This document shows, piece by piece, positions 4,509-42,131 of a DNA stretch of 64,000 bases. This DNA comes from Rhizobium sp. Q54 (lineage in GTDB: Bacteria; Pseudomonadota; Alphaproteobacteria; CADEGL01), in NCBI GenBank assembly GCA_945860095.1, contig CAMAPP010000001.1, forward strand, positions 3,741-67,740, written 5' to 3'. Every line of letters starts with the position of its first letter. The first letter of the stretch is position 1. A program made the position numbers and the translations under genes. The notes under the pieces are model-generated. The model saw nothing but the letters and a program-made list of their open reading frames with translations. It did not search any database and had not been told where the DNA came from.

Positions 4509-5237
4509 ATGCGATCCGTTGGCGTCATCGTGGCCCGAGGTGGATCCAAGCGGATCCCGCGCAAGGTTTTGCGCCCGCTCGGCGGCATTCCCCTACTTGC
4601 CTGGATGTCAAAGGCCGCGCTTGCAAGCCGGCTTGACGCCGTCGTGCTATCGACCGACGACGCCGAGATCGCCGCGCTCGGCCGCGAACTCGGGCTGTCG
4701 GTGCCGTTTCTGCGCCCCGCGGAATTGGCGCAGGATTTCGTCCGCAATGACGACGTCGTTCTGCACGCCATAGACATGCTCGGTTCTTCCGATTCGCCCG
4801 GCGCCGATATCGCGGTTCTTTTGCAACCGACCGCGCCTTTCACGCTGCCCGGCGATATCGATGCCTGCCTCGATGCGATGGAGGAAGCCGAGATTGCTTG
4901 CTGTTTTACCGCGCGCAAGGCGACCGAGAGACCGGAATGGATGTTCGTGCCGGGCGATAAGGGCACGGTAAAATTGCTGTTGGGTGGCGAGCTGGTCGGC
5001 GACCGGCAGCACAGCCAGAAATTGACGACGTACTATGTGCCTTCGGGCGCGGTGTGGGCGACGCGCGCCGATACGCTTCGCCGCACGCGGAGCTTCTACG
5101 CGCCGCCTTTGCGTATCGTCGAAGTCGAAGAGCACCGCACCGCCGACATCGATGTGGAGGACGATCTGATCGTTGCCGAGGCCCTGCTTCGAGCCCACGC
5201 GCTGGCGCCGGTCGGCGCGGAGCGCGGTCGCCGATGA
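4509..5237 (+). CDS. Acylneuraminate cytidylyltransferase family (CMP-nonulosonic acid synthetase), copy 1
   Basis: The N-terminus reads VGVIVARGGSKRIPRKVL... and the size is about 240 aa, typical of NeuA/LegF/PseF. Confidence 0.75.
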   Translation: MRSVGVIVARGGSKRIPRKVLRPLGGIPLLAWMSKAALASRLDAVVLSTDDAEIAALGRELGLSVPFLRPAELAQDFVRNDDVVLHAIDMLGSSDSPGADIAVLLQPTAPFTLPGDIDACLDAMEEAEIACCFTARKATERPEWMFVPGDKGTVKLLLGGELVGDRQHSQKLTTYYVPSGAVWATRADTLRRTRSFYAPPLRIVEVEEHRTADIDVEDDLIVAEALLRAHALAPVGAERGRR

Positions 5238-6271
5238 CGCGCGTCAAAAATATGACGCCGTTGGTTTGCGGACCGCGCGCGACCATGCGCGAAGCCATCG
5301 AGCGCATCAATGCCAGCCCGTATCTGTTTCAGGTCGTCGTCGATTCCGCCGGCTTCGTCCAGGGTACGGTAACCGATGGCGATATCCGGCGCGCCATGCT
5401 GCGCGGTGTTTCGCTCGACGATGCGGTCGAGGAAGGCATGCATCGCAATCCCATCGTCGGTTCCACGTCGAATACCGAGGACAATCTTCGGTTGCTGCGC
5501 AGGACAAAATTTCTGCCCGTCGTCGACGATGCGGGACGACTGGATCATGTTCTGGTGGAGCGCACTCCCGCCGGGGGCATCGGCGCGGCGCTCGTGATGG
5601 CCGGCGGCTTCGGCACGCGCCTGGGTGACGCCACGCGCGGCACGCCCAAGCCCCTGCTCGATATCGGCGGCCGGCCGATGATCGACCGTGTGCTCGCCGG
5701 ACTCGAGGACGCGGGCGTGTCGCGCATCACGGTCGCGGTGCATTACCTCGCCGAACAGATCGAGGCTTTCCTCGACGCGCGCGGCGGACGGCCGCGAGTC
5801 TCCGTGATCCGCGAGAGCGAGCCCCTGGGCACGGCGGGCGCGCTCGGGCTCATCGACCTTCCGCCCGATCGACCGGTCTTCGTCGTCAACGGCGATCTGG
5901 TGACCGGGGTGGATTATGCCGCCATGCACGAGTTTCACGTGCGCCACGGCTTCGACGGCTCGGTCGCCGCCGCGCGTCACGAATTGACCATCCCGTACGG
6001 CGTACTGCGCTACGACGAGGACGGCCTCATCTCCGGCATCGACGAGAAGCCGACGCTGCACCACTTCGTCGCGGCGGGCATCTATTATCTCTCGCCCGAG
6101 ATCGTCGCGCTGGTCGCGCGCGGACGCCCCATCGACATGCCGGAACTTTTGGAAAGCGCACGGAAAATCGGCTTGCGTATCGGCGTCTTTCCGGTTCACG
6201 AGCATTGGCGCGATGTCGGAAGGCCGGGCGATCTGTCGGCCGCGCGTTCGGAATTCGACGGCGCGAAATAG
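5234..6271 (+). CDS. CBS-domain sugar-phosphate nucleotidyltransferase (PtmE-like)
   Basis: An N-terminal CBS pair is followed by a nucleotidyltransferase motif (LVMAGGFGTRLG...KPLL). The ATG overlaps the upstream stop (ATGA). Confidence 0.7.
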   Translation: MTRVKNMTPLVCGPRATMREAIERINASPYLFQVVVDSAGFVQGTVTDGDIRRAMLRGVSLDDAVEEGMHRNPIVGSTSNTEDNLRLLRRTKFLPVVDDAGRLDHVLVERTPAGGIGAALVMAGGFGTRLGDATRGTPKPLLDIGGRPMIDRVLAGLEDAGVSRITVAVHYLAEQIEAFLDARGGRPRVSVIRESEPLGTAGALGLIDLPPDRPVFVVNGDLVTGVDYAAMHEFHVRHGFDGSVAAARHELTIPYGVLRYDEDGLISGIDEKPTLHHFVAAGIYYLSPEIVALVARGRPIDMPELLESARKIGLRIGVFPVHEHWRDVGRPGDLSAARSEFDGAK

Positions 6272-22400: not shown

Positions 22401-23117
22401 ATGAAGCGAATTTGCACAATCTGCGCGCGGGGGGGGTCCAAAGGTCTTCCCGGCAAGAACCTTCGGAAGCTTCTTGGAAAATCCCTCATCGCGCATTCCG
22501 TTGAGCACGCGCGCGCGACCGGCTTATTTGATGCCATCGCCGTGAGTAGCGACGACGACGACATTTTGCTGGCTGCGCGACAAGCAGACGTCGATCACCT
22601 GGTCAAACGCCCGTCCCATCTTGCCAACGATGTAGCTGCCAAGATGCCGACAATTCAGCACTGCGTGCGCGCAGTAGAAGAGAAATTAAATCAACAGTTC
22701 GATGTTATGGTCGATTTAGATGCCACTGCTCCATTGCGGCTTCCGGAGGATATCACGGGTGCCGTGGCGATGTTGGAGGCTGGCGGCTGCGACAATGTCA
22801 TTACCGGCAGTGAGGCGCACCGATCGCCGTATTTTAATCTTGTGGAGATGGGCAGAGATGGCTTCGTGAACCTGTCGAAGCCGGGTGGAGGGCTCGTTCG
22901 CCGGCAGGATTCACCCAAATGCTACGACTGCAATGCATCAATATACGTCTGGCCGCGCGCGACCTTTTTCGTGGCAGCGTTCGCCATTATGCCACGCACG
23001 AAGCTCTATGAAATGCCTCGCGGACGTTCACTCGATATCGACAACGAACTAGATTTTGAGATTGTCGAATTCCTCATGCGTCGCGCCGAGTTTGTGGACA
23101 GAGGATTGCGGAAATGA
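22401..23117 (+). CDS. Acylneuraminate cytidylyltransferase family (CMP-nonulosonic acid synthetase), copy 2
   Basis: The N-terminus reads ICTICARGGSKGLPGKNL... with the canonical length. Confidence 0.8.
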   Translation: MKRICTICARGGSKGLPGKNLRKLLGKSLIAHSVEHARATGLFDAIAVSSDDDDILLAARQADVDHLVKRPSHLANDVAAKMPTIQHCVRAVEEKLNQQFDVMVDLDATAPLRLPEDITGAVAMLEAGGCDNVITGSEAHRSPYFNLVEMGRDGFVNLSKPGGGLVRRQDSPKCYDCNASIYVWPRATFFVAAFAIMPRTKLYEMPRGRSLDIDNELDFEIVEFLMRRAEFVDRGLRK

Positions 23118-24694
23118 CGAATGCGGTTGCAGCGCCAACCAGTCGGAAGGGCCTAGCGGCATTTGTCTATGATGACATCGGCAAAATTACGGACTGGCGT
23201 GAGCGGCTCCACTGGCCGATCGCCCATGTTGATATCGCAAATATCGGACATCTCGTTCCCGCCGCGGTGATCTCGGCCGCGGCGTCTTTCTCCGATCTAT
23301 TCGAACGTCAGGTGGCGACCGTTGCCGGCCCGTTATTGGGCGGTGGGTTCATGTCGCTCTTGGAAGCGGCCTGGGTTAGCCAAGAAGCAAAACGCCTAGG
23401 CCTGGAGATCGTTGGTGGCCCCCCTGAAATGGCGTTGCTTGCACACGGCCGCGAAGACTTCGCCGTCCAGGAATATCGCGGCTTTCGGGTGATGCCAGTG
23501 CCACATTCGCGGCTTCGTCGCATGGTCCGAATGGCCATGTGGACGCCGGTTCACCGCCTCCCCCGCGCGCTGCTGACTCCGGAAGCAGTGGCGGTGACAT
23601 ACAATTCGCTGCTGGTGCAGGCAACGAAAGGCCATGCCGTCGGCTTCCATCACGCGCCAAACATGGTTGCACAATCCCGCGGTGGTCGTTCGCGGAAAAT
23701 GAATATTGATGTGGTGTCGATTGCGGACAAGGTGCTTGATCGCTTACTGCCACTCGCACCGATTCTCAACGCAATTCACCGCGACCGCCTGAGGAGGGTC
23801 TTCAATGCTCGTATCAAAACCGCATTGACACGGGTCGTAGAGGACATCGCCGCTTTGCGAGAATATAAACTTCCAAATGAAATCTGGAGCGGGACCAATG
23901 GATTTTATGCGACCCGCGTCCTTGCCAGCGAGGTTCGCCGTCGCGGCGGACGGGTTGAGGCATTCGATCACGGTGGCGTCACGGGCCTTACACAATTGGT
24001 GGGGTCAACGGCGCTGATCGAACTGTGCACCTCAAGTCGCTTTCATCTCGCCACACCGGAGTGGGCCGAGTTATTGGCGAAAACCGACGCGATCTCCATT
24101 GCCGCGCCGCTCAACAGCGTCACTCTGGCAGGTGGCGGCGGAGAGCCAACATTTCGCCAAGCGTTTCGCGACGGCACTGAACGCAAAGGTACACGACCGC
24201 GTGTCATCGTTATCGGCCATCCACATAAAGGCTTACGGCAATTTCCAATTGCGGCAATCAGCGACGCCACATATTGGGATTTCCAGATTGAACTCGTTGG
24301 CCAACTCAAACGCATGGACGTGGATTTTTTCTGCAAGCCGCATCCAGAAGGTGAGTTCCGAGGGCGTCGCAATCCACTGGAGGAACTCGCGCCGACATCT
24401 TATTCTCGCTTCGAAGAACATCTCGACGACGCCGATGTGTTTCTGTTCGATGCGCCGACATCCACCACATTTCTGGAGAGCCTCTGCACGCGGCGCCGAG
24501 TCGTGTTAATCGACCGGTTGTATGGTTTTAATCCTGTTGTGGAGCCTCACATACGCGAGCGTTGTCGAATTGTTAAAGGGCATTTCGATGCTCGAAATCG
24601 GTTCCGGGTCGATTTTAGCGAGCTGGAGGAGGCAATCTGCGGTACCGGATCGGAACCCGATCCTTCATATTTTCGACGTCTCACTTCCGGCTAA
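23114..24694 (+). CDS. Hypothetical protein with Capsule_synth-like (KpsS/KpsC-type) C-terminal domain; candidate CMP-nonulosonic acid transferase
   Basis: FFCKPHPEGE and DADVFLFDAPTSTTFLESL resemble the HP and TAGFES motifs of KpsS/KpsC. It is translationally coupled (ATGA) to the CMP-NulO synthetase. Confidence 0.5.
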   Translation: MTNAVAAPTSRKGLAAFVYDDIGKITDWRERLHWPIAHVDIANIGHLVPAAVISAAASFSDLFERQVATVAGPLLGGGFMSLLEAAWVSQEAKRLGLEIVGGPPEMALLAHGREDFAVQEYRGFRVMPVPHSRLRRMVRMAMWTPVHRLPRALLTPEAVAVTYNSLLVQATKGHAVGFHHAPNMVAQSRGGRSRKMNIDVVSIADKVLDRLLPLAPILNAIHRDRLRRVFNARIKTALTRVVEDIAALREYKLPNEIWSGTNGFYATRVLASEVRRRGGRVEAFDHGGVTGLTQLVGSTALIELCTSSRFHLATPEWAELLAKTDAISIAAPLNSVTLAGGGGEPTFRQAFRDGTERKGTRPRVIVIGHPHKGLRQFPIAAISDATYWDFQIELVGQLKRMDVDFFCKPHPEGEFRGRRNPLEELAPTSYSRFEEHLDDADVFLFDAPTSTTFLESLCTRRRVVLIDRLYGFNPVVEPHIRERCRIVKGHFDARNRFRVDFSELEEAICGTGSEPDPSYFRRLTSG

Positions 24695-24716: not shown

Positions 24717-24857
24717 ATGAGTAGGGGGGTGCCGAGTCGGGTGGACGAGCGCGGGCGGATCTGGCCGGATGCGGCCGCGCTCGAGGACGCCGTCTTGGCC
24801 GGCGCCGCCACGGCCGACCCCGGCTATTTCCGCCGTCTTTTGGCGGGCGATTCGTGA
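24717..24857 (+). pseudogene. 3' remnant of a resident homologue of the 526-aa Capsule_synth-like gene
   Basis: It encodes ...RIWPDAAALEDAVLAGAATADPGYFRRLLAGDS*, which parallels the C-terminus ...RFRVDFSELEEAICGTGSEPDPSYFRRLTSG* of 23114..24694. It is high-GC and keeps a GTGA overlap with the next gene. Confidence 0.4.
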
Positions 24858-25720
24858 CCACGCGTTATATTTTCACCGCGACCGCCGGCCGCAGCGGACA
24901 AAACTCGCTCGCCGATATCGCGCGCCGATATATTCCCGGTTGCCTCGTCCAGTTCGAGGAGCCGCAAATCCGGCCGCTCACGCCAAAACCCTTCGCCTAT
25001 TACGAGCGCCTGGTGCGGCGGCGCTTCGTCGAAACCCACGAATTGCTCGGCCGGGGGCGCGTGATCGAGGCATTCGTCGCCCGGGATGACGCGGCACTCG
25101 CGCGCTTTGCGCAAAGGCGCCTGGATTGGATCGGGCGCAAGATTGAAGGCGCCGGCGCGCACATCTATTTCGATGTCAGCAAATACTTCATTCGCGGCCT
25201 GCACCGGCCGATCGCGCGCGCGCGGCCGGGCATGACGCTGGTGCGCTTGGTGCGCGACCCGATCGTGAATATGCGCAGCTTTCTCAATCGCGATAAGAAT
25301 TTTTACCTGGATAACAATCGCCCCGACTCGGATGCGAACCAGTTGCGGCTCGACCCCGCGAATCTCGAGAAGGGCGAATTGTTCCTGTGGGCTTGGTGCG
25401 AATGCTATCTGCGCGCGGGCGCGCTCGCCGACGAGTTCGGCCTGAACCCGATCGTCGACATCGCAACTGCCGATCTCAACGATGGACCCGCCATGACCCG
25501 CGCCTTCGCCCGTCTCGGCTTCGACATTCCCGCCATCGATCCGGGCAAACCCCTGAACCGCAATGTCGCGAACGGCTACGGTGCAACACAAGTCTCGGCG
25601 AAGGACGTGGAATTGTTCGAGCGCTTTCGCGCCCGATTGCCCGCGGCCTCGCTCGAGCGCCTGAAAACCCTGCACGGCTACGACGCCCGCGAGGCATTGC
25701 GCCGTGCGATGCCGACATAG
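24854..25720 (+). CDS. Hypothetical protein with weak sulfotransferase-like motifs
   Basis: The N-terminal TATAGRSGQNS resembles a PAPS 5'-phosphosulfate loop, and LVRLVRDPIVNMRSF resembles the RDP...S 3'-phosphate motif. The GTG start overlaps the remnant stop. Confidence 0.4.
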   Translation: MTTRYIFTATAGRSGQNSLADIARRYIPGCLVQFEEPQIRPLTPKPFAYYERLVRRRFVETHELLGRGRVIEAFVARDDAALARFAQRRLDWIGRKIEGAGAHIYFDVSKYFIRGLHRPIARARPGMTLVRLVRDPIVNMRSFLNRDKNFYLDNNRPDSDANQLRLDPANLEKGELFLWAWCECYLRAGALADEFGLNPIVDIATADLNDGPAMTRAFARLGFDIPAIDPGKPLNRNVANGYGATQVSAKDVELFERFRARLPAASLERLKTLHGYDAREALRRAMPT

Positions 25721-25744
25721 ACCGGATAACATGATCCCAACCCG

Positions 25745-26728
25745 ATGAAATTGCCGATTCGTCTGAAGGCCCTGTTTCCCGGCTACCGGACCGGCTGGCG
25801 CGCGCGCTACGGCGCGATGCTCGCGGAATTGTCGGCGCTCGACCGCCGCGCAAGCTACGGCATGGATGGCGGCGCACCGTGGATCGAGCTCGCGGACGGG
25901 CCGCGCCTCCACGGCTTTGCGACCGAACCGGACAACGCCGACATTTTTTGGCTGCTGCGCGCGGCCATGCCGGCGCGCCTGCCAATGTCGCATTTCCGCC
26001 TGGCGAAGGACGTGATCACGCGCTTCGTCTATCCCCATATGCGTCCCGATTTGAAGCCCCAAGGCCATGCACCCGAGGCCTTGTTCGGCTTTCACGGCCA
26101 GCACAAGGACGCCATCGCCGATCTTGACGACGCGGCCGCGCGCGCGGTTCTGATGGCCGCGTTCGCACCGAAGCCGGGCGAATGCGTCGTCGATTGCGGC
26201 GCCTTTCTCGGCTTCGGCGATTTGCGCCTGGCGCCGGATATCGTCCCCGGACGCATCGTCGCGATCGAAGCCAATCGCGCTTGCCACGAATTTCTGGCGC
26301 GCAATATCGCCCACAACCGCGCGGCGAATGTGACGGCATTGCACCATGCGACCTGGGACCGGGAAATGGAGATCGAACTCGAATCGACCTTTGCCCAGGG
26401 AAACTCGCTGATCGAGGAAGTGCAGAAGGGCACGCGGAAGGAGAAGGTCAAGACCATCACGGTCGATCTCGCGGTCGAGCGCCAGGGCTTGGCGCGCGTC
26501 GATCTGTTGAGCCTGACCCTGAACGGTGCCGAGCCCGAAACCCTGGACGGCGCCGCGCGGACCTTGCGCGAATTTCGCCCGCGCATCCGTCTTGCCGGCT
26601 GGTACGTGCGCGAGGGCCGCAAGATCTGGGAACACGTGAAGCCGAGACTCGAGGCGCACAACTACCGAGTGTTCATCGGCCGGCGCGGCAATGTGATGGC
26701 CCTGCCCGCGGAGCGCTTTGACGCATGA
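25745..26728 (+). CDS. FkbM-family methyltransferase
   Basis: VVDCGAFLGFGDL ... IVAIEANRACHEFLARN are typical of Methyltransf_21/FkbM. Confidence 0.7.
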   Translation: MKLPIRLKALFPGYRTGWRARYGAMLAELSALDRRASYGMDGGAPWIELADGPRLHGFATEPDNADIFWLLRAAMPARLPMSHFRLAKDVITRFVYPHMRPDLKPQGHAPEALFGFHGQHKDAIADLDDAAARAVLMAAFAPKPGECVVDCGAFLGFGDLRLAPDIVPGRIVAIEANRACHEFLARNIAHNRAANVTALHHATWDREMEIELESTFAQGNSLIEEVQKGTRKEKVKTITVDLAVERQGLARVDLLSLTLNGAEPETLDGAARTLREFRPRIRLAGWYVREGRKIWEHVKPRLEAHNYRVFIGRRGNVMALPAERFDA

Positions 26729-28566
26729 TCGGCTTGTTCGGCATCTTTCGCGCCGATCCGCGCCTGCCCGCGAATCTTTCTCCGCTCGCGGCCACCTTGC
26801 CCGAGGGTTACGCGATCGGCTGTCACGACCGGCCGGGCGCGGCACTCGGCCGCGTGGCCCACCATCACGATTTTGCGGACGGTTACGCCGAAAGCGCCGA
26901 TGGCCGATTCGCCGCCACCGCGATCGGCGAGGTGTTCGATGCGGCGCAAGCCGGCATGACGGGATCGCTTGCGGCCTTCGCCGCGCGCCTGGTCGCGAAC
27001 AACCACCTGGAGCGCCTAGCGGAACTGAACGGCCTGTTCGCGATCGCGATTCACGACCGCGTCGCGCACCGCCTGATTCTCGCGACCGACCGGCACGCGA
27101 GCTTTCCCATCCATGTTTGGCGCGCAGGCAATGAACTGGTCTATGCCGGTCAAATCAAGACTTTGCTCGGCGACCCAAGGATTGCGCGCAAGGTTGACCC
27201 GCGCGCGCTCGCGCAATTGTTCACAACCCAACGCACCTTCGGGCGCACGACCCCTATCGCGGGCGTCGAAGCCTTGCCCGCCGCATGCCTGTTCGAGTTC
27301 GACGCGACGGGCGGGCGCGAGCGGCGCTATTGGGCGCTCGATTGGCGCCGCCCGGATTTCGACGAGCAAACCGGAGCGCGCCTTTTGGCCGAGGCCTTGC
27401 GCAAGGCCGTCGCGCGCCAGAGCGCCGCACCAAATACGGCTTTGCTGCTGTCGGGGGGCATCGACAGCCGGCTTGTCCTCGCCGCGGCGCCGCGAGGCGC
27501 GCTCGAATGTTGGACCACGGCCGGTTATGCCGGAAATCCGGAACTCGCCGTGGCGCGCGAAATCGCCGCCTTGTTCGGCGCCAAACACCACGCGCTGATC
27601 GTGGCACCCGAAGACACCTTGCCCGGGCTTGAGCGCACGGTCGTCGATTCGAATGGGCTATATCCCGCCTCGACGCCGATGTCGGCCTTCCTGCCCCAGG
27701 TCGGCGTCCATTGTCCTGCGATCCTGACCGGGCACGGACTCGATTACACCTTGCGCGGCTATTATCTGCCCGCGCGCTTCGCCGAGATCGCGGGATCGCG
27801 CACGCGCCTGCCCATTCTCCGGCCCATCCCGCGCCATCCGACCGGCGCGGACGTCCTGCGCTCGCTGCGCCAAGGCCCGCCACGCGCCACCATCGCGCGC
27901 ATCGTGGCGCCCGCTTGGCGGGCGGAATGGTGGCACAGCCAGGAGACGGCGCTCGATGGAACCCTGCGACCGTGGCTGCAATCCGCCGAGCCCTACAATG
28001 CCTGGGACGCCTTCATCCTGCATGCCGTATCCAAGCACTACGCCTTCACCGGCATGATGGCGACGCGCGCGGTCGGCAATCTACGCCTGCCCGCCTTCGA
28101 TGCCGAGGTATTCGACATTTATTTGCGCATGAAGCCCGCCTGGCGGTGCAGCGGCGCCATGGTCAAGCGCGCGCTCGGCGAGCTATCGCCCGAAGCCGCG
28201 CGGCTCGCACAGGCCAATACCGGATTTCGTGCCGGACTTGGGCCTTGGCGCGAGATTGGCGCGCTCATGGCGCGCGCGGGTTTGCGCCGCCTGGGCCTTG
28301 CCTCCCGGCCCGAACCGCCGACCGAATACCATTCGACGGGGTCGTGGCAGGACATTCCCAATCTGTACCGCTTGGAGCCGGGCCATCGGCGGCGCTTCGG
28401 CGAGATTCGCGCGCGCTTGGATGCGCTGACGCTCGGCGTTCTCGACGCCGATGGTTTGCGGTCGTGCATCGACGAACATCTCGACGGCCGCGCCAAGCAC
28501 ACCAAGCTTCTGCGCCAGCTGCTGACCCACGACGCCTTCGTGCGCGAATTCGGGGCAACCGCGTGA
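26725..28566 (+). CDS. Asparagine synthase (AsnB)-like amidotransferase lacking the N-terminal Cys nucleophile
   Basis: The N-terminus is MIGLFGIF instead of MCGI. The PP-loop LLSGGIDSR and the overall AsnB domain order are conserved. Confidence 0.7.
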   Translation: MIGLFGIFRADPRLPANLSPLAATLPEGYAIGCHDRPGAALGRVAHHHDFADGYAESADGRFAATAIGEVFDAAQAGMTGSLAAFAARLVANNHLERLAELNGLFAIAIHDRVAHRLILATDRHASFPIHVWRAGNELVYAGQIKTLLGDPRIARKVDPRALAQLFTTQRTFGRTTPIAGVEALPAACLFEFDATGGRERRYWALDWRRPDFDEQTGARLLAEALRKAVARQSAAPNTALLLSGGIDSRLVLAAAPRGALECWTTAGYAGNPELAVAREIAALFGAKHHALIVAPEDTLPGLERTVVDSNGLYPASTPMSAFLPQVGVHCPAILTGHGLDYTLRGYYLPARFAEIAGSRTRLPILRPIPRHPTGADVLRSLRQGPPRATIARIVAPAWRAEWWHSQETALDGTLRPWLQSAEPYNAWDAFILHAVSKHYAFTGMMATRAVGNLRLPAFDAEVFDIYLRMKPAWRCSGAMVKRALGELSPEAARLAQANTGFRAGLGPWREIGALMARAGLRRLGLASRPEPPTEYHSTGSWQDIPNLYRLEPGHRRRFGEIRARLDALTLGVLDADGLRSCIDEHLDGRAKHTKLLRQLLTHDAFVREFGATA

Positions 28567-29864
28567 GCGCTCTCGCCTTTCGCTTGTCCATCGCGCCCGC
28601 GCTCGAGAAATTCCGTCCCGAGATCGTCCATGCCTGCGATTTTCTCGCGCGCTGCCATGGGCTTATCCGGGACGAGACGGCCCCGCGCATCCTGCACTAC
28701 GGCCCCGCGCCACCAGAGGGGGCGGTGCATGTCCCGGCGGCGCTGTTTCCCTCGGGCGCGCGGCTCGACGGCGAGGGCATCCATCCCGTCGCGTCGGCGC
28801 TCGACGACATGTTGGCGGGAAAGCGCGAAACGGCGCTTTTCCCGAAGACAACAGGGCGCCTCGATTACGATGCGCTGGGATTGATTTTTCTGCTCCTGTC
28901 GCGCATCGAGGAACGCGGCCACCAAGCGCGCGACCGCTACGGCCGGTTCCCCTACGCCGCGTCCTTGGCGGTGCGCAAAACCGGCAAGGCGGCAAATCTG
29001 GCCGACGATGCGGCGCGCGATATCGCCGCCGCGCTGTACGGCACCGACACCCCGCCCATCGCCACGTGCCACCAAATTCTCGTGACCCACGATGTCGATC
29101 GGCTCAAGGGTTATCACCGCGCTCACGAACCCTTGCGCCACGCGCTCGGCGATCTTGCGAAGCGGGGCGCGCCGGGCAAGGCATGGCACCGCCTCGTGGA
29201 CGGGTATTTTTCGCGCGAGCCGTGGCGGTCGGCGCGCGCCCTGATGGCGGCGTCCGAGGCGCGCGGCCTTGCGAGTCGGTTTTATTTCATGGGTCCGAGC
29301 GCCCACCCCATGGACAGTCCCTATACCGCCAGAATGCCGAAGCTTCTGGGCGTGCTGGGGCGCGAGATCGCGGGGCGCGGCCATGTCGTCGGCTTCCACC
29401 CCGGTTTCGAAACCGCGAGCGATCCCGCGCTATGGCAAGCGCAGCGCGCGGGGCTTGAGAACGCACTCGGATTTCGGGTCACGGAAGGCCGCCAGCACGT
29501 TCTGCGTTATATCGCCGAGGACACGCCCGATATCTGGAACGACGCGGGCATGGCGCTCGACGCCACGCTTGCCTGGCCCGATGCGAGCGGGTTTCGCAGC
29601 GGCACCTGCCGACGCCATGCCGCCTATAGCTTGCGCCGGCGGCGCACCCTCGCGCTCGATCAGGTCTCGACCGCGATCATGGATTTCAGCTTCTTCGGCG
29701 GGAAGTATCGCGCCATGGCGATCGACGACGCGCTCGACGAAGCGAGAAAGGTCGCGAAGATCTGCAAGCATCACGGCGGCGCATTGGTCATCCTTCAACA
29801 TACCGGCCAGAACCGTCCGCCCCAGAGCGCGTTCTTCGAGCGCCTATTGGATTTGGCTTCATGA
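28563..29864 (+). CDS. Hypothetical protein, polysaccharide deacetylase-like domain
   Basis: ILVTHDVDRL and RFYFMG blocks are paralogous to those of the next gene. The GTG start overlaps the upstream stop. Track entry 27711 is over-extended. Confidence 0.45.
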   Translation: MSALAFRLSIAPALEKFRPEIVHACDFLARCHGLIRDETAPRILHYGPAPPEGAVHVPAALFPSGARLDGEGIHPVASALDDMLAGKRETALFPKTTGRLDYDALGLIFLLLSRIEERGHQARDRYGRFPYAASLAVRKTGKAANLADDAARDIAAALYGTDTPPIATCHQILVTHDVDRLKGYHRAHEPLRHALGDLAKRGAPGKAWHRLVDGYFSREPWRSARALMAASEARGLASRFYFMGPSAHPMDSPYTARMPKLLGVLGREIAGRGHVVGFHPGFETASDPALWQAQRAGLENALGFRVTEGRQHVLRYIAEDTPDIWNDAGMALDATLAWPDASGFRSGTCRRHAAYSLRRRRTLALDQVSTAIMDFSFFGGKYRAMAIDDALDEARKVAKICKHHGGALVILQHTGQNRPPQSAFFERLLDLAS

Positions 29865-30586
29865 GCGCGGATTTCTCTTTCTCTTCCTATCGCGCGCTTC
29901 TTCAGGCGTTCGCGGATCGGGACTACAAGGCAATGTCCTATGCCGACGCCGATCCGGCCCGGCGCCATCTCATCCTGCGCCACGACATCGACATCTCGCT
30001 CGGAGCCGCGCTGCCGATCGCGGAGATCGAGCGCGAAGCCGGCATGGCCGCCACGTATTTTGTCATGACGCGCAGCGAAATCTACAACCCCTTCGCGCCC
30101 GACGGCGCGCGCGCGCTGGCGCACATCGTGGATCTGGGCCACCGCATCGGCCTGCACTTCGACGCGGCGTTATACGGCCCGGGGCAACAACTCGACGACG
30201 CGGCGGCGCGGGAATGCGCGGTCCTCGGGAAAATCGTGGGCCAAGACGTGCACGTCATCAGCTTTCACCGCCCCGCCCCGGCCCTGATCGGGCGCGCGGG
30301 CACGATCGCCGGACGGCGCCACGCCTACGAGCCGCGCTTTTTTGCCGAAATGGGCTATTGCTCGGATTCGCGCGGCGGTTGGCATCGGGGCGCGCCGCTG
30401 AATCACCCGGCGGTGCGCGCCGGCACGGCGCTCCAATTGCTGACCCATCCGATCTGGTGGCTCGACCCGGCGGCGGAACCCGCCGCGCGCTTGGACCGCT
30501 TTCTCGACACGAAGTTCGCGGCGCTCGACCGGGAATTGGCGGAACATTGTGAGGTCCATGTGGCGGGACGGAGAGTGGTTCGATGA
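29861..30586 (+). CDS. Polysaccharide deacetylase-like protein
   Basis: Contains LILRHDIDISL ... ATYFVMTRSEIYNPF ... GLHFD. It overlaps the upstream stop (ATGA). Confidence 0.45.
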   Translation: MSADFSFSSYRALLQAFADRDYKAMSYADADPARRHLILRHDIDISLGAALPIAEIEREAGMAATYFVMTRSEIYNPFAPDGARALAHIVDLGHRIGLHFDAALYGPGQQLDDAAARECAVLGKIVGQDVHVISFHRPAPALIGRAGTIAGRRHAYEPRFFAEMGYCSDSRGGWHRGAPLNHPAVRAGTALQLLTHPIWWLDPAAEPAARLDRFLDTKFAALDRELAEHCEVHVAGRRVVR

Positions 30587-31572
30587 GTCGCGTGGGCGTT
30601 GTCGGCCTCGGCCATTGGGGGCCCAATCTTGCGCGAAACTTCCATCTTCTGGGCGCGCTCGGCGCGGTGTGCGACACCCGCGAGGAATCGCGAACGGCCG
30701 TTCTTAAAACTCTTCCGGGCGTGGCGGGGCACGCGGATTTTTCCGCCATGCTGGCCTCGCCGACCATCGACGCGGTCGCGATCGCGACGCCGGCGGCAAC
30801 CCACGGCGCGCTCGCGGCCCGCGCGCTGGAAGCGGGCAAGCACGTCTTCGTCGAGAAGCCCTTGTGTCTCGACTTGGCGCAGGCGCGCGCGCTCGGCGAG
30901 GACGCGGCGCGGCGCGGTCTGGTTCTTATGGTCGGACATCTGCTCCTTTATCACCCGGCCTTCAATGCGCTCGAGCGCCTGGTCGCCGACGGCAAGCTCG
31001 GGGAATTACGCTACGCCTATTCGAACCGGCTGAGCTTGGGCAAAATTCGGCGCGAGGAGAACGCCCTGTGGTCGTTCGCGCCGCATGACATCTCGATGAT
31101 CCTGGCGCTGGTGGGTCGGGTTCCCGTGCGCGCCATGACGAGCGGCGGCAGCTATCTGTTGCCGGGCATCGCCGACACCACACTTTCGCATCTCGATTTC
31201 GGCCAAGGCGTGCAAGGCCATGTCTTTGTGTCGTGGCTTCACCCGTACAAGGATCATCGTTTGGTGATCGTCGGCAGCAAGGGCATGGCCAGTTTCCACG
31301 ACAGCCAGACGGGGGCGGAAAAACTCATGTTCTATCCCCACGGCGTCGGCTGGAATGAAGATCTGCCCACGGTCGCAAAGGCCACGGCGGAGCCCGTGCC
31401 CTACGAGGCCGACGAGCCCTTGAAGCGCGAATGCCGCCATTTTCTCGATTGCGTCGCCGGACGCGCAAGGCCACGTTCGGATGCTGCGGAGAGCCTGCGC
31501 GTTCTTGCCGTGCTCGATTCCTGCCAACGCTCCCTGACGCTGGGCAGCCCCGTGGAGATCGCGGCGCCATGA
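30583..31572 (+). CDS. Gfo/Idh/MocA oxidoreductase, WbpB/GnnA-like sugar 3-dehydrogenase
   Basis: [15 protein letters not shown] and EKP are present. It is followed by acetyltransferase and aminotransferase genes, as in diacetamido-sugar modules. Confidence 0.75.
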
Positions 31573-32141
31573 GCGATTATTACATTCACCCGAGCGCGAT
31601 CGTGGACGACGGAGTCCACATCGGCGCCGGCACGAAAATCTGGCATTTCGCCCATATCCTGCGCGGCGTGCGGCTCGGCGAGCGCTGCGTCGTCGGCCAG
31701 AACGTGATGATCGGGCCGAACGTCGCGATCGGCCAAGGGGTCAAGATTCAGAACAATGTCTCGATCTACGAAGGCGTCGTGCTCGAGGATGACGTGTTCT
31801 GCGGCCCCTCCTGCGTGTTCACCAATGTTCTGACGCCGCGCGCCTTCATCGAGCGGAAATCGGAATTCGCGCCCACTCGCGTGCGCCGGGGTGCTTCCAT
31901 CGGCGCCAACGCCACCATCGTTTGCGGCGTGACCGTCGGGCGCTATGCCATGGTGGGCGCGGGCGCGGTCGTGACCCACGACGTCCGCGATCACGAACTC
32001 GTTCACGGCAATCCCGCGCGCCCGCGCGGCTGGGTGAGCCGTACGGGCGAGGTTCTTGGCGCTAACCTCGTGTGCCCGCGGACGGGCGAGCGTTATCGCC
32101 GCGAATCGGACGGCCTCGTCGCCGTCGAGGAGAAGACATGA
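31569..32141 (+). CDS. Hexapeptide N-acetyltransferase, WbpD-like
   Basis: Left-handed beta-helix repeats run through most of the 190 aa. The ATG overlaps the upstream stop. Confidence 0.8.
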
Positions 32142-33289
32142 GCCGCACCGTCCCCGTCACCGATTCCATCCCGTTCATGGATTTGAAGGCGCAGTACGCG
32201 CGCCTCAAACCCGAAATCGATGCCGCCATTGCGCGTGTTCTGGCCCACGGCCAGTTCATCCTGGGGCCCGAGGTCAAGGAATTGGAGAGCAAGCTCGCCG
32301 AACGCGCGGGCGCCGCGCATTGCATCGGCGTGGCAAACGGCACGGACGCACTGACCATCGCGCTCATGGCCGAGGGCGTGGGGTCGGGGGATGCGGTCTT
32401 TGTGCCGTCCTTCACGTTCACGGCGACGGCGGAGGCGGTGTTGATCCTCGGCGCGGCGCCGGTGTTTTGCGATGTCGATCCGAAGACGTGCAATCTCGAT
32501 CCGGTGGATCTAGCGCGCCGCATCGAGGCGGTGCGCGCCGCGGGCAGGTTGCGCCCGCGCGCGATCATCGCCGTCGATCTGTTCGGCTTTCCGGCGGATT
32601 ACGCCGCGCTGGAGGCGCTGGCCGGCAAGCACGCATTGTTCGTGCTGGCCGATGCCGCGCAGAGCTTCGGCGCGCGCAGCGGCAATAAGCGCGCGGGCGC
32701 GCTAGCCCCCGTCACGACGACGAGCTTCTTTCCAGCAAAGCCGCTCGGCTGCTACGGCGATGGCGGCGCCTTGCTGACCGACGACCCGGCGCGCGCGGCG
32801 TTGTATCGTTCGATGCGCGCCCACGGCACGGGCGGCGCCAAGTACGACATCGTGCGATTGGGCTTCAACAGCCGGCTGGATACCTTGCAGGCCGCGATCC
32901 TGCTCGCGAAGCTGCCCGCACTCGACGGCGAAATCGCCGCGCGCGCGCGCTTGGCCGATCGGTACGATCGCCTGCTCGCCGGCGCGGTCGAAACCCCGCC
33001 CCGTCAACCCGACACGGCGAGCGCCTGGGCGCAGTACACGATCCAAACCAAGCGGCGCGATCACGTAGCCGCGACGCTGAAGGCCCAGGGCATTCCGACC
33101 GCGATCTATTACCCCAAGCCCATGCATCTGCAACCTGCCTACGAGAGTTACGGCGAGGGGCCGGGATCGCTCGCCATATCCGAAGCGCTTGCATGCCGGG
33201 TGTTGAGCCTGCCCTTCCATGCCGATATGGACGAAGCGACGGCGCTGCGCGTCGCCGGCGCCGTCAGGGCCGCCGTGGCAGATGGCTGA
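32138..33289 (+). CDS. DegT/DnrJ/EryC1/StrS aminotransferase, WbpE-like
   Basis: Canonical [13 protein letters not shown] and PSFTF motifs are present. Confidence 0.85.
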
Positions 33290-34415
33290 ACTGCGGACGC
33301 TCGACGCGCTCAGCATCGCGAGCCGGGCTGATTCGTTCGTCGCCATCGCGGCCGACATCCCCGGCGAGTATTGGACCAAGGAACATTTCCTGGTCGAGCG
33401 GCCGGGGAAATGGCGCCTGTCCTTCGCGGCCTGGGACGGCGATACGCCCATTGCCTATGCGGTGCTATCGCAACCCGACGCCGGGCGCGTCCATCTTCAT
33501 CATTTCATGGTCGCGCGAGCGCATCGCGCCAGGGGGCTGGGGCGGCGCATGCTCGCGGAAATGCTGGCGCGCGCCCGCGCTTCGGGCGCCGCGCGCTTGA
33601 CTCTCAAGGTGCTATCGGGCAATGAGCGGGCCATCGCCTTTTACCGCGCGAACGGATTTAACCCCGTCGGCCGGGAAGGCGAATACGCGGTGCTGGAGCG
33701 CGCGCTCGGCGCAGCGGTCGCGCGCGCCGCCGTCGCCATCCACCAGCCGAATTACCTGCCTTGGCTCGGCTATTTTTGGAAGATGGCCCAGGCCGACATC
33801 TTCGTCTTTCTCGACAATGTCCAATTCACCAAGGGCGGATACACCAACCGGATGCAGATCGATGCCGGCGGCGTTGCGCGCTGGCTGAGCGTGCCAGTAA
33901 TGGTGCGCCTCGGCATGCGCATCGATCAGATCCGCCCCAGCAGGCCGGATTGGCGCGCCGCCCATCTCGACACGCTCGCGACCTATTACGCAAAGGCGCC
34001 GGCGTACCGCGAGGTGCGCGACTGGCTGGCCGAGGAATACGAACGCGCGCCCGCCACGGATTTGGCGGCGATCAATCGAAGCCTCGTCGAAGCGATCGCC
34101 GCGTCGCTTGGCCTCAAGACCCGCTTCGTCGCCTCGTCCGAAATTCCGACCGGCGACGCGGACGGCGATATGCGTCTTGTGCGCATCGTCGAACACTTGG
34201 CGCCCGGCGGGGTCTATCTGTCGGGCAAGGGCGGCGACAATTATCAGAACGCCGAGCGCTTCGTCGAAGCGGGGCTTGAGTTGCGCCACACCGACTATCC
34301 GATGCCGCGTTACGATCAGGGCAGGCATGATTTTCTCGGCGGGCTATCGGTGATCGATGCCGCTTTCCGTCTCGGCTGGGCGGGTGTGGCCGAATTGCTG
34401 CGCGTTTCCGCGTGA
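33282..34415 (+). CDS. GNAT acetyltransferase domain fused to a WbqC-family domain
   Basis: GNAT core (ARAHRARGLGRRMLAEM ... AFYRANGF) followed by AIHQPNYLPWLGYFWKMAQADIFVFLDNVQF (WbqC signature). Confidence 0.65.
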   Translation: MAELRTLDALSIASRADSFVAIAADIPGEYWTKEHFLVERPGKWRLSFAAWDGDTPIAYAVLSQPDAGRVHLHHFMVARAHRARGLGRRMLAEMLARARASGAARLTLKVLSGNERAIAFYRANGFNPVGREGEYAVLERALGAAVARAAVAIHQPNYLPWLGYFWKMAQADIFVFLDNVQFTKGGYTNRMQIDAGGVARWLSVPVMVRLGMRIDQIRPSRPDWRAAHLDTLATYYAKAPAYREVRDWLAEEYERAPATDLAAINRSLVEAIAASLGLKTRFVASSEIPTGDADGDMRLVRIVEHLAPGGVYLSGKGGDNYQNAERFVEAGLELRHTDYPMPRYDQGRHDFLGGLSVIDAAFRLGWAGVAELLRVSA

Positions 34416-40235: not shown

Positions 40236-42131
40236 ATGTGCGGGATCGCGGGAATCGTCAATCTCGACGGGCTGGGCCCCGAGATCACGGCCGCGCGCAT
40301 GGACCGCGCACTCGACTGGATGCGTCTGCGCGGCCCCGATGGCCGCGCGCGCTGGTCGGACGCGCGTTGCGCGCTCGGCCATACGCGCCTCGCGGTCATC
40401 GACCTGTCCGCCGCCGCCGCCCAACCCATGGTCCGCGACGGCCTGGTCGCGACCTTCAACGGCGAGATCTACAATTTTCGCGAGGTACGGGCGGACTTGG
40501 AACGCCTTGGCCATCGCTTTACCACCCAATCGGACACCGAAGTCCTTTTGGTCGGATGGCGCGCTTGGGGCGTCGCGCTATTGCCCAGGCTGGTCGGCAT
40601 GTTCGCGCTCGCGCTATGGGACGCGCGCGAAGGTGCGCTGTTTCTTGCGCGCGACCGCTTCGGCAAGAAACCTTTGCTCTATGCTCAGGATGGCCGGAGC
40701 CTGACCTTCGGTTCGGATTTGCGCGCGTTGGAAGCGCTCGAGGGCACGCAGCGCGAGGTCGATCCGGGTGCGCTACGCCTGCTGTTCGCGCTCCGCTACA
40801 TTCCCGATCCATTCTCTATCGCGCACGGCGTGCACCGCTTGCCCGCCGGACACTGGGCGCGGTTCGACGCCCGAGGATTGTCGATCGCCCGCTGGTATGA
40901 CCCCATGGCCGCTCGCCCGCCGCGCTACGCCGACGAGGACGAGGCCGCGCGGGATCTGGCCCTACGCTTCGATGAGGCCATCGCCGCGCGCACGGTCGCG
41001 GACGTGCCGATCGGCGCCTTCCTTTCCGGCGGCATCGATTCGGCGATCGTCACCGCATCCTTGGCGCGCCAAACCGCCCGCGTGCGCACTTTTACCGTCG
41101 GCTTTCCCGGCGCCTCGGCATATTACGAGGAACGCCCGGCCGCACGCGCCGTGGCCCGGCACCTGGGCACCGATCACACCGAAATCGAGATCACCGCGCG
41201 CGAGGCGCAGGACGCGCTCGAAGGCGTATTCGACGGCCTCGACGAGCCGTTCGCCGACAGCTCGGCCTTACCGACCTATCTTTTGAGCCGCGCCACGCGC
41301 CGCCACGTGACCGTCGCATTGTCGGGCGACGGCGCGGACGAGGTCTTCGGCGGCTACCGGAAATATCAGGGCGAATTGCTGGCCGAAACCTATCGCCGCA
41401 TCCCGTCTTGGTTGCGCACGTTCGCCCTGGAGCCGCTCCTTGGAACCTTACCCGAAGCCAAGGACAGTGCGTTGCTCGAAACTTTCCGCCGCGCGCGCCG
41501 TTTCGCCGCCCACGCCGGCAAGGTGCCCGCGGACCGGCAGGCGGGCTGGTCGCGCCTTCTTGCCGAGGACGAACTCGACGCCGTGTTGGTCGAACGCGGC
41601 ACCGCGCCGACGATCGAGGCCCTGTTCTCCGGCGCGCGCGCGCACGCGCCATCGGACGACCCGATCAACACCATGCTGGCCGCCGAGATGGCGATCGGCC
41701 TTGTCGGCGACATGCTGGTCAAGGTCGACCGCATGAGCATGGCCAATAGCCTCGAGGTGCGTTGCCCCTTTCTCGACCAACGCGTGGTCGAATGCGCTTT
41801 TGCCATGCCGGGCGGATTCAAGCTGCGCCGAGGCCAGGGCAAGCGCGTGCTGCGTCGCGCCTTCGCGGACCGCTTGCCGGCCGAAGTATTCGATCTGCCG
41901 AAGAAGGGCTTCGAGATGCCCATCGCGGACTGGCTGCGCGGCGAATTGGCGCCGTTGGCGCGCGCGGCGATCGATCCCGCACATCTTAGGCGCCAAGGCT
42001 TGTTCGATCCCGACCTGCCCGCGCGCTGGTTTGCGGATCTCGCGGCCGGACGGCGCGATACGTCGTGGCAATTGTGGACCATGATCGCGTTCCAGCAATG
42101 GTACGCCCGACGCGGACAGCCGGCACCATGA
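40236..42131 (+). CDS. asnB: Asparagine synthase (glutamine-hydrolysing), WbpS-like amidotransferase
   Basis: N-terminal MCGIAG nucleophile and the PP-loop FLSGGIDSA are present; about 630 aa. Confidence 0.85.
   Translation: MCGIAGIVNLDGLGPEITAARMDRALDWMRLRGPDGRARWSDARCALGHTRLAVIDLSAAAAQPMVRDGLVATFNGEIYNFREVRADLERLGHRFTTQSDTEVLLVGWRAWGVALLPRLVGMFALALWDAREGALFLARDRFGKKPLLYAQDGRSLTFGSDLRALEALEGTQREVDPGALRLLFALRYIPDPFSIAHGVHRLPAGHWARFDARGLSIARWYDPMAARPPRYADEDEAARDLALRFDEAIAARTVADVPIGAFLSGGIDSAIVTASLARQTARVRTFTVGFPGASAYYEERPAARAVARHLGTDHTEIEITAREAQDALEGVFDGLDEPFADSSALPTYLLSRATRRHVTVALSGDGADEVFGGYRKYQGELLAETYRRIPSWLRTFALEPLLGTLPEAKDSALLETFRRARRFAAHAGKVPADRQAGWSRLLAEDELDAVLVERGTAPTIEALFSGARAHAPSDDPINTMLAAEMAIGLVGDMLVKVDRMSMANSLEVRCPFLDQRVVECAFAMPGGFKLRRGQGKRVLRRAFADRLPAEVFDLPKKGFEMPIADWLRGELAPLARAAIDPAHLRRQGLFDPDLPARWFADLAAGRRDTSWQLWTMIAFQQWYARRGQPAP

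Follow-up and report, generated by a model that had tools for sequence, protein, structure and literature searches.

A stretch of 64,000 nucleotides from Rhizobium sp. Q54 (assembly GCA_945860095.1, contig CAMAPP010000001.1, positions 3,741 to 67,740 of the forward strand), hereafter the window, contains two adjacent genes that an earlier reading of the sequence had proposed to encode a sulfotransferase and an FkbM methyltransferase. Transitive homology, as judged from sequence, establishes the 288-residue product of the first gene, here called ST, as a member of the superfamily of sulfotransferases dependent on 3′-phosphoadenosine 5′-phosphosulfate (PAPS). We consider it probable that ST is a soluble cytoplasmic PAPS-dependent sulfotransferase of a rare, previously unannotated clade and that it acts on a sugar of a surface polysaccharide. 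The two genes are:

24854 to 25720, + strand: ST gene, encoding a 288-residue cytoplasmic protein of the sulfotransferase superfamily, from a divergent clade missed by annotation

25745 to 26728, + strand: gene for a 327-residue S-adenosylmethionine (SAM)-dependent methyltransferase of the FkbM family (TIGR01444, PF05050)

Homologues of ST numbered 230 at E ≤ 1e-3. We compared two sets, an alignment of 44 close homologues (A1) and a group of 43 weaker, full-length distant relatives (A2). PF13469 (Sulfotransfer_3) was matched by 11 of the 44 A1 members on their own, and the A2 sequences matched Sulfotransfer_3 (23 of 43), Sulfotransfer_1 (17 of 43, best E = 5e-8) or Sulfotransfer_4 (3 of 43). 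When A1 was aligned with A2 using hhalign, the two sets were joined with a probability of 100% (E = 1.7e-40), and the GRSG, RDP...S, and WxE..R elements fell in register. The clade consensus reads FT.TAGRSGQ ... FEEP ... DVSKY ... RDP..NMRS ... WAWCE.YLR ... N.N, and that of the distant relatives reads FTATTGRSGT...HEPxP...YxExNHxF...RDPxxVAxS...WYWxExExR. The gathering cutoff of PF13469 (27 bits) was not reached by the window's ST but was passed by the homologues P0026 (27.7 bits) and P0031 (28.1 bits), which are 56-57% identical to it and whose matches begin at approximately residue 4, run to residue 147 or beyond, and cover both of the motifs described below. ST is, on this sequence evidence, in PF13469 by transitive membership only, its clade lying at or past the edge of the model. 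The clade is also rare, with 307 matches at E ≤ 1e-3 among 1.84 billion cluster representatives in an exhaustive hmmsearch.

Two short segments had originally drawn attention to the protein for their resemblance to the 5′-phosphosulfate-binding (PSB) and 3′-phosphate-binding (PB) motifs of sulfotransferases. Both were borne out, as they sit on invariant residues (R13 in the first, R134 and S142 in the second) that correspond to conserved PAPS-binding elements. The segments of ST that carry the most strongly conserved residues are:

24875 to 24907, + strand: PSB loop TATAGRSGQNS, residues 8-18, following strand 4-10 in the structure model, with R13 as candidate catalytic arginine

24953 to 24964, + strand: FEEP segment directly after strand 2, with E35 as candidate catalytic base; E35 and P37 are invariant

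25172 to 25186, + strand: DVSKY segment after strand 3, with D107 and K110 as active-site candidates; A1 shows no variation at D107, S109, or K110

25238 to 25282, + strand: PB strand-turn-helix LVRLVRDPIVNMRSF, residues 129-143, with R134 and S142, identified from conservation and from strand 128-133 and helix 136-145 in the model

25388 to 25414, + strand: WAWCECYLR helix, with E183 and R187, which are invariant in A1; the equivalent Glu and Arg are invariant in A2

Within A1, no variation occurs at G12, R13, G15, R134, D135, or P136, and conservation of S142 is 90% or higher. The same picture emerged from 42 related genomic loci, which include near-duplicates and are therefore not all independent: none of the aligned sequences departs from R13, E35, D107, R134, S142, E183, or R187. 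R13 is identical in all 40 loci that cover its position and is found in the distant relatives as well, where the PSB segment corresponds to GRSGT in the consensus of sequences matching Sulfotransfer_1 and Sulfotransfer_3. All 42 loci share R134 and, eight positions further on, S142, and the equivalent Arg and Ser are invariant in A2.

Sulfotransferases have been defined by a Lys or Arg in the PSB loop, a Ser in the PB helix, and a β-sheet core, the catalytic base being either His or Glu (PMC11625862). ST has the PSB arginine, the PB-helix serine, and the β-sheet core of this definition. Its structure model has a central parallel β-sheet with flanking helices. The PSB strand-loop-helix consists of strand 4-10, a loop, and helix 16-26, and the PB strand-turn-helix of strand 128-133, a turn, and helix 136-145. 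Between strands 2 and 3 the protein carries a helical insertion of approximately 50 residues (47-100). ST is soluble, with neither a leader nor an anchor.

These features allowed us to outline how the enzyme might work. We infer the use of PAPS, the roles of the catalytic residues, a sugar as the acceptor, and O- rather than N-sulfation. The GRSG loop, through R13, would hold the 5′-phosphosulfate of PAPS, and the RDPxxxxxS strand-turn-helix, through R134 and S142, would hold the 3′-phosphate. A conserved acidic residue would deprotonate an acceptor hydroxyl (an amine is less probable) for in-line attack on sulfur. E35 is the most probable candidate for this base, with D107 and E183 as alternatives. 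It follows R13 by 22 residues, and its role was assigned from this position; in human TPST2, Arg78 and Glu99 are spaced by 21 and Lys158 is used in catalysis (PMC10951654). In ST the leaving 3′-phosphoadenosine 5′-phosphate would be stabilized by K110 together with R13, comparable to the Arg/Glu/Lys arrangement of the tyrosylprotein sulfotransferases (TPSTs). In the distant relatives, the position of K110 is occupied by the His of an NH consensus, as in sulfotransferases that use a His base. We infer that the clade has an Arg/Glu/Lys arrangement like that of TPST and NST. The acceptor would be a sugar, either as a nucleotide-sugar or as a lipid-linked glycan intermediate, of the polysaccharide made by the surrounding cluster.

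Examination of the related loci revealed genes for PAPS synthesis near ST. In 14 of the 42, a Sat-type ATP sulfurylase and/or an adenosine 5′-phosphosulfate (APS) kinase is encoded within 4.2 kb on the same strand, mostly directly upstream of ST. A typical genome has only one or two sulfate-activation genes, and the adjacency of ST to them is therefore far beyond what chance would give. Pfam confirmed the orders APS kinase, Sat, pyruvate kinase (PK), and ST in loci L035 and L040, and a PK::Sat fusion followed by ST in locus L002. PAPS genes together with a sulfotransferase in a polysaccharide cluster are a hallmark of sulfated polysaccharide synthesis (PMC11641403). A pyruvate-kinase paralogue accompanies Sat next to ST in 11 of the 12 Sat-bearing loci, either fused to it (PK barrel, PUA_2, and ATP-sulfurylase domains in 721 residues) or as a separate gene between Sat and ST. 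The PK and Sat genes near ST are located at:

L002, 7815 to 9980

L035, 5987 to 9143

L040, 6997 to 9999

and also in L015, L016, L017, L033, L024, L028, L032, and L034

Such a pairing is reminiscent of a PAPS unit that regenerates its ATP, a natural counterpart of cascades that have been engineered (PMC9885120). A JGI contig carrying the relative P0069 has an APS kinase, a PK::Sat fusion, a second and canonical Sulfotransfer_3 gene, two AsnB-like genes, and a sulfatase-family gene, a content that suggests multiply sulfated glycans in some hosts.

Several observations weigh against assigning ST as a sulfotransferase. The profile search against Sulfotransfer_1/2/3 that had been put forward as a check gave no match for the 288-residue protein even at E ≤ 1, and direct scans at that threshold returned no Pfam or NCBIfam family at all. 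Searches of PDB sequences by phmmer and hmmsearch, with the protein itself, a 44-sequence profile, and a Pfam-positive homologue, returned chance matches only (telomerase RT, HSP90, and uL15). The PSB loop reads GRSGQ where the canonical form is GRSGT, and none of the three invariant acidic candidates for the base (E35, D107, and E183) is singled out. As to PAPS supply, which had also been proposed as a check, tblastn and Pfam searches of the 64-kb window revealed no gene for ATP sulfurylase or APS kinase and none of the CysD/N type, and the five loci with a PK::Sat fusion have no APS kinase within 10 kb. All 40 matches in reference genomes are in metagenome-assembled genomes (MAGs). Finally, the TM-scores of the ST model to solved sulfotransferases are only 0.42-0.52, with P-loop kinases ranking closely behind.

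The last point raises the alternative that ST is a P-loop-type kinase, or another nucleotide-dependent transferase built on the same α/β core. We regard this as highly improbable. The sulfotransferases that rank above the kinases align over 192-214 residues, compared with approximately 150-165 for the kinases. The loop AGRSGQNS does not conform to the Walker-A pattern GxxxxGK[ST], having no Lys-Ser/Thr, whereas the sulfotransferase-specific PB element (R134...S142) is invariant. The relatives match three sulfotransferase families in Pfam and no kinase family, and the dedicated PAPS-synthesis genes beside ST in a third of the loci likewise argue against a kinase. The sulfotransferase assignment of the original prediction was thus upheld for the fold and the PAPS-binding motifs, by way of homologues, the structure model, and gene context; it was not upheld by a direct profile match of the protein's own.

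Both open reading frames (ORFs) were found as predicted, the ST gene starting with GTG and the FkbM gene with ATG, and the same 288- and 327-residue products are called in independent assemblies. GC content at the first, second, and third codon positions (GC1/2/3) is 0.65/0.46/0.78 in the ST gene and 0.68/0.47/0.81 in the FkbM gene. GC3 exceeds GC1 and GC2 in the + frames of both, indicating that these are the coding frames. A 673-residue antisense ORF (24824-26845, − strand) spans both genes and was rejected as a shadow frame from its GC1/2/3 of 0.78/0.49/0.66 and from homology; in such a high-GC stretch it is a trap for simple longest-ORF gene calling. In an ST orthologue with 97% identity, the PGAP product name is "hypothetical protein", and that of its neighbor is "FkbM family methyltransferase".

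The assignment of the second gene in the window to the FkbM family, as first proposed, was confirmed by TIGR01444 (fkbM_fam; 74.2 bits, E = 1.4e-20, cutoff 37.7) and by PF05050 (30.5 bits, cutoff 22.7). The catalytic domain spans approximately residues 143-308, with the TIGR01444 match at 148-283. At the start of this match is the glycine-rich sequence VVDCGAFLGFG (residues 148-158), which we take to be a SAM loop of the DxGxxxG type. The N-terminal 140 residues are family-specific and have no annotated match. The best annotated relatives are 26-27% identical, in the catalytic domain only, none of the close relatives found is a characterized enzyme, and no PDB sequence was matched by the protein.

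The stop codon of ST and the start of the FkbM gene are separated by 24 nt, and the end of the FkbM gene overlaps the following gene, encoding an AsnB-like protein, by ATGA. Such short gaps and overlaps suggest a single operon. The pairing is conserved, with an FkbM gene directly 3′ of ST in 29 of 39 assessable loci. A distant metagenomic relative, P0269 (434 residues), has Sulfotransfer_1 at residues 3-198 and a class-I SAM methyltransferase at 278-385 in a single chain, a Rosetta-stone-type fusion that supports joint action of sulfotransferase and methyltransferase. The FkbM enzyme would methylate the same glycan that ST sulfates, and O-sulfated and/or O-methylated sugars, as originally predicted, would be a plausible product of the pair.

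Alternatively, ST and the FkbM enzyme might form a cap at the non-reducing end that stops chain growth of an ABC-transporter-dependent polysaccharide, instead of modifying every repeat. WbdD of Escherichia coli O9a, a kinase-methyltransferase, would be an analogue. The tight conservation of the ST-methyltransferase adjacency, the fusion in P0269, which recalls the two-domain architecture of such terminators, and the soluble, cytoplasmic nature of both proteins are all in keeping with a cap. We nonetheless consider it improbable, as the window showed neither a Wzm/Wzt ABC transporter nor a molecular ruler of the coiled-coil type. A cap would in any case be a sub-case of the sulfotransferase assignment, requiring PAPS-dependent sulfation of a sugar as well.

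ST and the FkbM gene head a larger colinear module. They are followed, in order, by genes for the AsnB-like protein, a DUF7033 protein, a 241-residue protein, a GFO/IDH/MocA oxidoreductase, a hexapeptide acetyltransferase, a DegT aminotransferase, a GNAT-WbqC protein, a family 4 glycosyltransferase (GT4), and a PMT_2 protein. The order and spacing of the module are the same in relatives that are 45-63% identical. The genes up to GNAT-WbqC are:

26725 to 28566, + strand: homologue of AsnB-like adenylating amidotransferases, third gene of the module (PF00733, 1.1e-18)

28563 to 29864, + strand: fourth module gene, DUF7033 protein of 433 residues with a GTG start at 28563 (PF23019, 3.4e-9; colinear in relatives)

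29861 to 30586, + strand: 241-residue protein, fifth gene of the module, its position conserved in relatives

30583 to 31572, + strand: GFO/IDH/MocA sugar oxidoreductase (PF01408, 1.4e-23)

31569 to 32141, + strand: hexapeptide-repeat acetyltransferase with left-handed β-helix (PF00132, 3.5e-28)

32072 to 33289, + strand: DegT/DnrJ/EryC1 sugar aminotransferase (PF01041, 5.2e-102, matched from residue 46)

33282 to 34415, + strand: GNAT-WbqC fusion protein (PF08889, 2.1e-54; PF00583, 3.3e-18)

The listed start of the DegT gene overlaps the preceding gene and the PF01041 match begins at residue 46, so that the true start is probably near 32138. MIGLFG is the N-terminus of the window's AsnB-like protein and of its counterparts in all 30 relatives examined, whereas the true AsnB of the window (40236-42131) begins with MCGIAG. 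The MIGLFG start indicates an AsnB-like protein without the glutaminase Cys nucleophile, which probably ligates ammonia or another amine. The DUF7033 protein has no PDB sequence match, and the 241-residue protein matched nothing in Pfam, NCBIfam, or PDB. Both contain H-D-x-D-like segments (VTHDVDRL and LRHDIDIS) reminiscent of deacetylase/hydrolase barrel families. The conserved module headed by the ST and FkbM genes also comprises those for the Cys-less AsnB-like protein, the DUF7033 and 241-residue proteins, and a GFO/IDH/MocA, hexapeptide acetyltransferase, and DegT set for a diamino-sugar.

We also weighed whether the sulfate is a transient leaving group, as with the sulfotransferase domains of CurM and Ols, the sulfated hydroxyl being displaced or eliminated by a module enzyme such as the Cys-less AsnB-like, DUF7033, or 241-residue protein. 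This, too, appears unlikely. The enzymes TPST, NST, and 3-OST, which form stable sulfates or sulfamates, score as well or better; neither a thioesterase or decarboxylase partner nor a polyketide synthase context was seen; and in polysaccharide clusters, such as the one containing ST, the documented outcome is stable sulfation (PMC11641403, PMC6192434).

Upstream of the ST gene lies a low-GC island (12-24.7 kb, GC3 0.59-0.61) with genes for nonulosonic acid (NulO) synthesis. These include two genes of the UDP-GlcNAc 2-epimerase family, NeuB, PglD-like and hexapeptide acetyltransferases, an SDR, a GNAT protein, a GFO/IDH/MocA oxidoreductase, a PseF-like cytidylyltransferase, and a terminal 526-residue protein. 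The pair had been described as lying immediately downstream of the island, and the junction agrees with this: nucleotide identity to the nearest relative, L003 (93.5%), starts abruptly at 24728 and GC3 shifts there. The native GC3 of ST and the FkbM gene (0.78 and 0.81) and the identity to L003 from 24728 onward place both genes outside the island. At the junction we found:

23114 to 24694, + strand: 526-residue GT-B-fold protein, last gene of the island (model with a mean predicted local distance difference test score of 90.5)

24728 to 24857, + strand: 3′ remnant of an older high-GC allele of the 526-residue protein gene, marking the recombination junction of the island

The 526-residue protein has no Pfam match and, from its model, is a probable glycosyltransferase. 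A homologue of its gene is present in Rhodospirillaceae bacterium KN72, whose genome does not bear a MAG label. The remnant encodes a peptide ending in ...ADPGYFRRLLAGDS, which mirrors the C-terminus of the 526-residue protein, ...PDPSYFRRLTSG. The TGA stop of the remnant overlaps the GTG start of ST (GTGA), indicating that ST was formerly coupled translationally to a glycosyltransferase-like gene and that the island swap broke this ancestral coupling.

NeuB is encoded within 10 kb of ST in 21 of the 42 loci and directly upstream in 6. A GT-B gene located after a CMP-NulO synthetase has its stop codon overlapping the start of ST. The proximity of NeuB, the overlap of ST with the GT-B gene, and environmental extracellular polymeric substances (EPS) containing both NulOs and sulfate (PMC10483923) hint that the triad of ST, FkbM, and Cys-less AsnB-like proteins decorates a nonulosonic acid or a linked 2,3-diamino-uronic acid, with PAPS coming in some lineages from the PK-Sat unit. 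We hold this only as a speculative extension of the proposed activity on a polysaccharide sugar. If true, the product would be a sulfated and methylated sialic-acid-like sugar. We know of no bacterial description of such a sugar.

Upstream of the island, the window also contains a HisF-like (His_biosynth) gene at 1783-2583 and a gene for a protein with CBS and nucleotidyltransferase domains at 5054-6271. Both are typical accessories of legionaminic-acid-type and acetamidino-sugar pathways, and with them the surface-glycan locus would extend over at least approximately 1-37 kb of the window.

The 40 reference-genome matches come mostly from Alphaproteobacteria, including Rhodospirillales, Ferrovibrio, Marivibrio, Pacificispira, and bins labeled Devosia or Rhizobiaceae. 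Outside this class, one Nitrospirales MAG has two copies (L012 and L019) and one Planctomycetota MAG has one (L029); these copies could stem from horizontal transfer or from binning error. Bacterial polysaccharide sulfotransferases are poorly catalogued, and the clade, compact and recognizable in aquatic Alphaproteobacteria, would be useful as a new annotation seed and is a candidate for regiospecific glycan sulfation. It leaves the understanding of the sulfation mechanism unchanged. Pfam sulfotransferase seeds are biased to animal glycosaminoglycan enzymes, and bacterial ones are missed (PMC11625862). In environmental EPS, NulOs and sulfate are chemically present, yet known sulfotransferases were not found by BLAST (PMC10483923).

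Among known enzymes, ST has in common with PF13469, the bacterial PAPS-dependent family that includes NodH, the Arg-containing PSB loop (RxG/GRSG), the RDP...S PB element, and the α/β core; NodH is detected by PF13469 owing to the RxG motif in its PSB (PMC11625862). ST differs in having no hidden Markov model (HMM) match at E ≤ 1, in the helical insertion of residues 47-100, and in the Gln that replaces Thr after GRSG.

ST was also compared with TPST1 and TPST2 (PDB 5wri and 3ap3), to which it is 13-14% identical, the equivalence of residues being drawn from spacing and secondary structure. TPSTs are anchored in the Golgi membrane and modify proteins, whereas ST is unanchored and encoded in a polysaccharide cluster. 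We also considered that ST might sulfate proteins (at tyrosine) in the manner of TPST or the bacterial RaxST, its substrate being a glycoprotein, flagellin, or another protein that is secreted or exposed at the surface. The low identity, the strict synteny of ST with sugar-modifying enzymes in approximately 30 loci, and the lack beside ST of genes for a RaxX-like peptide or for type I secretion all argue against such a role, which we judge very unlikely. A glycan remains the acceptor we favor.

Sulfated surface glycans had been called noteworthy in Alphaproteobacteria in the original prediction, which overstated their novelty, as rhizobia were already known to make sulfated lipopolysaccharide (LPS), capsule, and Nod factors (PMC6192434, PMC4881576). 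Sulfation of LPS and of surface polysaccharides or capsule is PAPS-dependent in Sinorhizobium meliloti and Mesorhizobium loti, and the Nod factors of Sinorhizobium fredii NGR234 are sulfated by noeE and 2-O-methylated by noeI, with nodPQ as a dedicated PAPS supply (PMC4881576, PMC6192434). The mode proposed here, a sulfated and O-methylated alphaproteobacterial glycoconjugate, is the same. However, the substrate of NoeE and NoeI is a lipo-chitooligosaccharide (or LPS in other rhizobia), and the PAPS genes near ST, where present, are of the Sat type with a pyruvate-kinase paralogue and not NodPQ. Searches of 72,556 plasmids by tblastn gave no match for ST at E ≤ 0.1 and only remote FkbM genes, from Bacillus and Azospirillum, for the methyltransferase, so that no homology to NoeE or NoeI can be claimed.

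A comparable arrangement is known from the sulfated capsular polysaccharide clusters of Vibrio sp. KMM 8419 and Cobetia marina KMM 1449, which contain a gene for a sulfotransferase together with an additional copy of the PAPS-synthesis genes (PMC11641403, PMC11766843). Those clusters belong to marine Gammaproteobacteria and have cysDNC, recognizable sulfotransferases, and solved glycans, whereas the module described here is from uncultured Alphaproteobacteria, has a sulfotransferase that escapes HMM recognition, and is tied to nonulosonic-acid genes. What is new relative to these systems is the clade itself, which goes undetected by standard annotation, is fixed at the head of its module, is linked to nonulosonic-acid genes, and in some lineages is coupled to PK-Sat.

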